Source: Escherichia coli (GTDB taxonomy: Bacteria > Pseudomonadota > Gammaproteobacteria > Enterobacterales > Enterobacteriaceae). Taken from it: a stretch of DNA of 1,567 nucleotides. Positions 1,439 to 1,567 of this stretch are shown here, one piece after another. Both the position numbers and the translations under genes were made by a program. The notes under the pieces are model-generated. The model ran no database searches and was not told the origin of the DNA. It worked only from the letters and a program-made list of their open reading frames with translations. The stretch lies in NCBI RefSeq assembly GCF_003334385.1, contig NZ_QOWN01000111.1; one strand, written 5' to 3'. Position 1 is the first letter of the stretch; the number at the start of each line of letters is the position of its first letter.

Positions 1439-1567
1439 ATGAATCGTGTGCTGTATGGCGTGCTTATTGCCCTGCTGCTTGGTTGTGGATCGCTGTGGCT
1501 GGCAACAGACCATTACCGCGATAACGCCATCACCTACAAAGCGCAGCGCGATAAAAAAGCCAGAGAG
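1439..1567 (+). CDS. Rz i-spanin (inner-membrane spanin subunit), N-terminal fragment; 3' end lies outside the window
   Basis: ATG 1439-1441 opens a frame that runs to the window edge: MNRVLYGVLIALLLGCGSLWLATDHYRDNAITYKAQRDKKARE. An N-terminal transmembrane helix is followed by the motif HYRDNAITYKAQRDK, which I recall as near-identical to the N-terminal region of phage lambda Rz. The position downstream of the lysozyme fits the lysis cassette. Confidence 0.85.
   Translation, partial: MNRVLYGVLIALLLGCGSLWLATDHYRDNAITYKAQRDKKARE

Follow-up and report, generated by a model that had tools for sequence, protein, structure and literature searches.

Organization of the lysis cassette

The window, by which is meant the whole stretch of 1,567 bp of Escherichia coli DNA analysed here, carries lysis genes of a lambdoid prophage in the order class II holin, YdfR, lysozyme, a spacer of 336 bp (1103-1438), and Rz/Rz1 (Table 1). 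The hydrophobic N-terminus of the lysozyme suggests an enzyme of the signal-anchor-release type.

Table 1. Position of the genes and other features on the 1,567-bp window.
Feature	Position	Strand	Basis
Class II holin gene of 71 codons, 3' part (truncated at the window start)	1..150	+	PF04971; 80% identity to EssQ
YdfR-family (DUF1327) ORF between holin and lysozyme	155..505	+	Homology to YdfR
Lysozyme (endolysin), 177 aa	569..1102	+	PHROG 7; PF00959; 90% identity to K-12 RrrQ
Terminator-like hairpin, rich in G+C, with a T run on its 3' side	1193..1225	+	Pattern scan, fold
37-codon ORF, MKGIEVETPASLDLTRAAAFAIRIVAIAVLVWAIRWW	1324..1437	+	PHROG 4493 (unknown function), E 5.5e-16
Rz i-spanin gene, first 43 codons	1439..1567	+	ORF, translation, PHROG 13

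The Rz reading frame starts at an ATG (1439-1441), with the TGA stop codon of the 37-codon ORF (1435-1437) lying directly 5' of it, one base before the ATG, and remains open for all of the 129 nt left in the window; the gene is thus cut by the window after 43 codons, as the earlier note had it. The translated 43-residue peptide, MNRVLYGVLIALLLGCGSLWLATDHYRDNAITYKAQRDKKARE, matches by itself the 'Rz-like spanin' family PHROG 13 (E 8e-12), as well as PHROG 35719, a family of short N-terminal Rz fragments (E 5.5e-22). Residues 4-22 (nt 1448-1504), which have a mean Kyte-Doolittle value of 2.18 and constitute the most hydrophobic 19-residue stretch of the whole protein, are predicted to form the N-terminal transmembrane anchor, after which the periplasmic helical domain would begin. 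Following this segment, the peptide has 18 of the 20 positions between residues 24 and 43 in common with lambda Rz, including the HYRDNAITYKAQRDK motif, and the RefSeq start of Rz in E. coli strain EC2 is located at the same ATG. Judged from these sequence features, the ORF at 1439-1567 is the real 5' end of an i-spanin gene and no chance ORF. A longer Rz that would begin at an in-frame upstream TTG (position 7382 on the EC2 contig) was ruled out: the ATG at 1439 aligns with Met1 of lambda Rz, and it is also the annotated start. Open reading frames on the minus strand and promoter-like sites in the region 1260-1513 were not more frequent than in shuffled sequences.

Completion of Rz and Rz1 beyond the window

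The sequence downstream of position 1567 was taken from identical or near-identical public contigs, and not from the window itself. The window is present over its full 1567 bases, but for one mismatch, in five complete E. coli genomes. In one of these, that of strain EC2, which is one SNP away from the window, the Rz frame runs on to a 155-codon 'lysis protein'. An exact-sequence look-up with the EC2 Rz protein carrying the change V11A (the window encodes Ala at position 11) retrieved four contigs. Contig L003 (GCA_012325885.1, AASGSM010000128.1) agrees with the window at 1567 of 1567 bases (100%); the contig L004 covers positions 88-1567 of the window (1480 bases) and is likewise 100% identical to it there. 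A scan of metagenomes added one further exact match to the 129-nt Rz segment (L012), and no exact copy of this segment turned up in the species-representative genomes scanned.

The six contigs that contain the 129-nt segment exactly or with one SNP (L001, which is the EC2 contig, L002, L003, L004, L005 and L012) were compared, and each of them carries an uninterrupted 155-codon Rz together with an embedded 61-codon ORF in the +1 frame, corresponding to Rz1. Relative to the Rz ATG, the start of Rz1 is offset by 220 nt (220 mod 3 = 1), just as it is in lambda, and falls 92 nt beyond the window end; in all six contigs Rz1 terminates 62 nt before the Rz stop codon. Projected from the identical contigs onto the window numbering, Rz1 would extend from 1659 to 1844 and Rz, whose complete ORF in L003 comprises 468 nt, would end at 1906. 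Both ORFs are also intact in three more diverged relatives, namely phage YYZ-2008, E. coli CE10 and an O157:H7 strain. The apparent absence of the lysozyme from the metagenome contig L002 (2274-2334) proved to be neither a lesion nor a deletion, the run of N at this place being a scaffold gap.

The earlier note had anticipated a lipoprotein gene in the +1 frame just downstream of the window, and had proposed to extend the sequence in search of a complete Rz and an embedded ORF with a lipobox. Both are present in L003 and L004, the contigs identical to the window, where the embedded product displays a VSAC lipobox and is rich in proline; the contrary outcomes that it had named (Rz disrupted by a stop, a frameshift or an insertion, or the lack of a lipoprotein ORF) were not seen in any of the extended contigs. 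Its reservation that the cassette could not be called complete from the window is answered by approximately 340 more bases, which in the identical contigs complete Rz/Rz1. In the DNA from which the window derives, Rz almost certainly runs to 155 codons and holds the 61-codon Rz1 wholly in its +1 frame. We hold with very high confidence that positions 1439-1567 represent the 5' end of Rz in the lysis cassette of a lambdoid prophage, the gene being incomplete only through the window edge.

Identity and predicted function of the spanins

The full-length Rz of 155 residues matches PHROG 13 with an E-value of 3.7e-75 over profile positions 1-153 of 154, its product is recorded with the Pfam family PF03245, and it shows 71% identity to lambda Rz. 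The part of the protein past the transmembrane segment aligns with the periplasmic domain of lambda Rz, and residues C99 and C153 align with C99 and C152 of the lambda protein. The Rz1 ORF, which encodes MRELKMKLCVLMLPLVVSACGSTPPAPVPCVKPPAPPEWIMQPAPDWQTPLNGIISPSESG and opens with MRELKMKLCVLMLPLVVSAC, has the same translation in five of the six contigs; the product from L012 differs by one residue of the signal peptide (P14L). Rz1 carries the VSAC lipobox with Cys20, a second cysteine at position 30 that aligns with C29 of lambda Rz1, and 12 prolines among its 42 mature residues. It matches Pfam PF06085 'Lipoprotein Rz1 precursor' (E 1.9e-19) and PHROG 3198 'Rz-like spanin' (E 1.7e-29), and shows 70% identity to lambda Rz1. 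A search of Rfam at E<=1 yielded two sub-threshold chance matches only (rimP leader and GcvB), both well below their gathering scores.

The locus combines an i-spanin of the Rz family, having a single N-terminal anchor and periplasmic cysteines, with an o-spanin lipoprotein of the Rz1 family, whose gene lies wholly in the +1 frame of Rz, and Rz is located in a lysis cassette behind a class II holin, YdfR and a lysozyme. By these attributes Rz/Rz1 is classified as a textbook embedded spanin pair, a kind already known. In lambda, the whole of Rz1 likewise lies within the +1 frame of Rz, C99 and C152 of Rz and C29 of Rz1 form homodimer disulfides, Rz contains two coiled-coil domains, and the third position of the penta-proline of Rz1 is reported to tolerate alanine (PMC5295617).

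Compared with their lambda counterparts, the present proteins share the N-terminal transmembrane domain, the HYRDNAITYKAQRDK motif and both disulfide cysteines of Rz, and the lipobox, the proline-rich region and the C-terminal WQTPLNGIISPSE motif of Rz1. The differences concern protein length (155 versus 153 residues for Rz, 61 versus 60 for Rz1), a diverged sequence of the Rz transmembrane domain, and the motif PPAPP in place of the lambda penta-proline. The conserved cysteines and a PPAPP motif having its alanine at the tolerant position make it likely, on the basis of lambda genetics (PMC5295617), that the lambda mechanism applies to this pair.

By homology with lambda, Rz would be anchored in the inner membrane through the transmembrane segment encoded in the window, and mature Rz1, a proline-rich protein, would be anchored by its lipid in the outer membrane. 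The coiled-coil periplasmic domain of Rz is predicted to bind Rz1 across the periplasm. Once holin and endolysin had removed the peptidoglycan, the Rz-Rz1 complex would disrupt the outer membrane, probably by fusion of the two membranes. Two-component spanins are needed for this step, and their null mutants leave spherical cells that divalent cations stabilise.

Comparison with known lysis cassettes

The earlier note described the prophage as Qin-type, and for the first genes of the cassette this description holds: holin, YdfR and lysozyme occur in the same order as in the Qin prophage of E. coli K-12 (NC_000913; essQ-ydfR-rrrQ-rzpQ/rzoQ), with identities of 80%, 44% and 90%, respectively, the value for YdfR applying to its N-terminal 78 residues. 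The YdfR ORF appears as a locally more diverged module between its two neighbours. The description does not extend to the spanin, as the Qin i-spanin RzpQ is a DUF2514 protein to which the Rz found here shows no significant similarity (BLASTP E 0.74), so that the pair does not belong to the RzpQ (DUF2514)/RzoQ type. The gene arrangement differs as well, since rrrQ and rzpQ overlap in Qin without a spacer. Rz belongs to the same family as rzpD of the DLP12 prophage, with 83-84% nucleotide identity, and its length of 155 residues is that of the Rz proteins of Stx phages and YYZ-2008. On this sequence comparison, the protein is placed in the lambda/DLP12-RzpD/Stx-phage type. Qin-type first genes and a lambda/DLP12-type spanin make the cassette a mosaic, as is typical of lambdoid phages. 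The distinction matters for naming, as it avoids labelling the spanin Qin-type.

Compared with lambda itself, the cassette has a class II holin instead of S, a 177-aa lysozyme instead of R, and a 336-bp spacer between endolysin and Rz where the lambda R and Rz genes overlap. A spacer of approximately 300 bp between R and Rz, together with the conserved hairpin, is found in the cassettes of phage H-19B, Stx-converting phages and DLP12. The content of the spacer varies: YYZ-2008 carries the antirepressor gene ant at this place, PhiR5_2 has different small ORFs, and the present cassette has the 37-aa ORF.

The spacer between lysozyme and Rz

The hairpin at 1193-1225 folds with -21.8 kcal/mol (z -4.0) and is located approximately 85-90 nt past the stop codon of the lysozyme (R) gene, a feature that is kept in H-19B, many Stx-converting phages, PhiR5_2 and Salmonella phage SPN3UB. 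Across phages, the 14 pairs of its stem show one compensatory change and three one-sided changes, and the stem is maintained. The hairpin also marks the point where the spacer content begins to differ among phages. The spacer looks like a variable moron slot that is bounded by a conserved hairpin. Just past the hairpin (window 1251-1287), a Shine-Dalgarno-like AAGGGAG precedes the ATG of an 8-codon mini-ORF (MVREVLSL); H-19B and the rest of the aligned phages retain this motif (AAGGGAG/AAAGGAG).

The 37-codon ORF, which carries the annotation of a hypothetical protein (WP_000675931.1) in EC2 and O157:H7, encodes a product whose C-terminal half is hydrophobic (Kyte-Doolittle 2.10 for residues 16-34). 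As opposed to being part of a passive moron slot, this ORF could encode a translationally coupled lysis accessory, with the hairpin belonging to the same unit; the product may, for example, be a small membrane protein modulating spanin or pinholin timing. The support for this accessory role consists of the conservation of the ORF and of its placement, and we regard it as improbable, though less so than the two alternatives treated below. In YYZ-2008, the frame just 5' of Rz also translates as a hydrophobic stretch.

A second alternative accepts that Rz and Rz1 are intact and supposes that they provide no working spanin, for instance by being cut off from late transcription through the spacer hairpin. 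The presence of a strong hairpin and T run between lysozyme and Rz, at a place where the lambda genes overlap instead, lends this idea some substance. However, the same spacer and hairpin occur in the records of H-19B, Stx-converting phages and SPN3UB, in which Rz/Rz1 are intact; a Q-type antiterminator gene is located upstream in EC2; and the residues that are required in lambda are conserved here. Late transcription of lambdoid phages is Q-antiterminated and passes intrinsic terminators. We consider a non-working spanin very unlikely, and retain a putatively functional Rz/Rz1 pair as the preferred reading of the locus.

State of the prophage

The prophage of EC2 is annotated with integrase, excisionase, repressor, Cro, replication genes, the Q-type antiterminator and the lysis genes, followed by terminase, portal, capsid and tail genes through tail fibre J, and a single partial pseudogene is annotated in it. 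According to this annotation, the lambdoid prophage of EC2, the closest complete genome, is apparently complete, which does not by itself prove that it is inducible. The suggestion that the prophage could be defective finds no support in this prophage, which reaches from integrase to J with one annotated pseudogene; the evidence from EC2 bears on the closest genome, 1.6 kb being too short to judge the state of the prophage in the window's own genome.

The least probable alternative, a cassette in a decaying cryptic prophage that is broken just past the window because Rz is truncated or because of an insertion or a rearrangement at the contig end, can draw on the short length of L003 and L004 (2.6 and 1.9 kb), on which the prophage context is not visible, and on the many E. 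coli genomes with partial Rz matches (4535 with a match, 2087 of them with a single place that spans 80% or more of the query), but it has very little left to it given the intact Rz and Rz1 of all six matching contigs, the complete prophage of EC2, and the fact that the partial matches begin at query position 73, which reflects a diverged transmembrane-coding 5' end (as in rzpD) and not truncation. The intact cassette, interrupted only by the end of the window, remains the reading that we adopt.

Annotation of the spanin genes

The pair as such is ordinary and of low importance, the question of the completeness of the cassette being closed by the few hundred additional bases described above. 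For annotators, it is of use that the RefSeq records of this cassette name Rz or Rz1 but not the two together. Among the NCBIfam models, none matches Rz, Rz1, the 37-aa ORF, YdfR or the holin, and because Rz and Rz1 have no such model, PGAP gives them only the names 'lysis protein' or 'Rz1 family lipoprotein'. As a consequence of this one-gene naming, a spanin that appears 'incomplete' in an annotation table usually points to a gap in the annotation rather than in the biology. In RefSeq, only Rz is annotated in EC2 (L001, 7439-7906) and only Rz1 in the O157:H7 strain (L011, 2219-2686); despite the single annotation, both overlapping ORFs are intact in the two strains.
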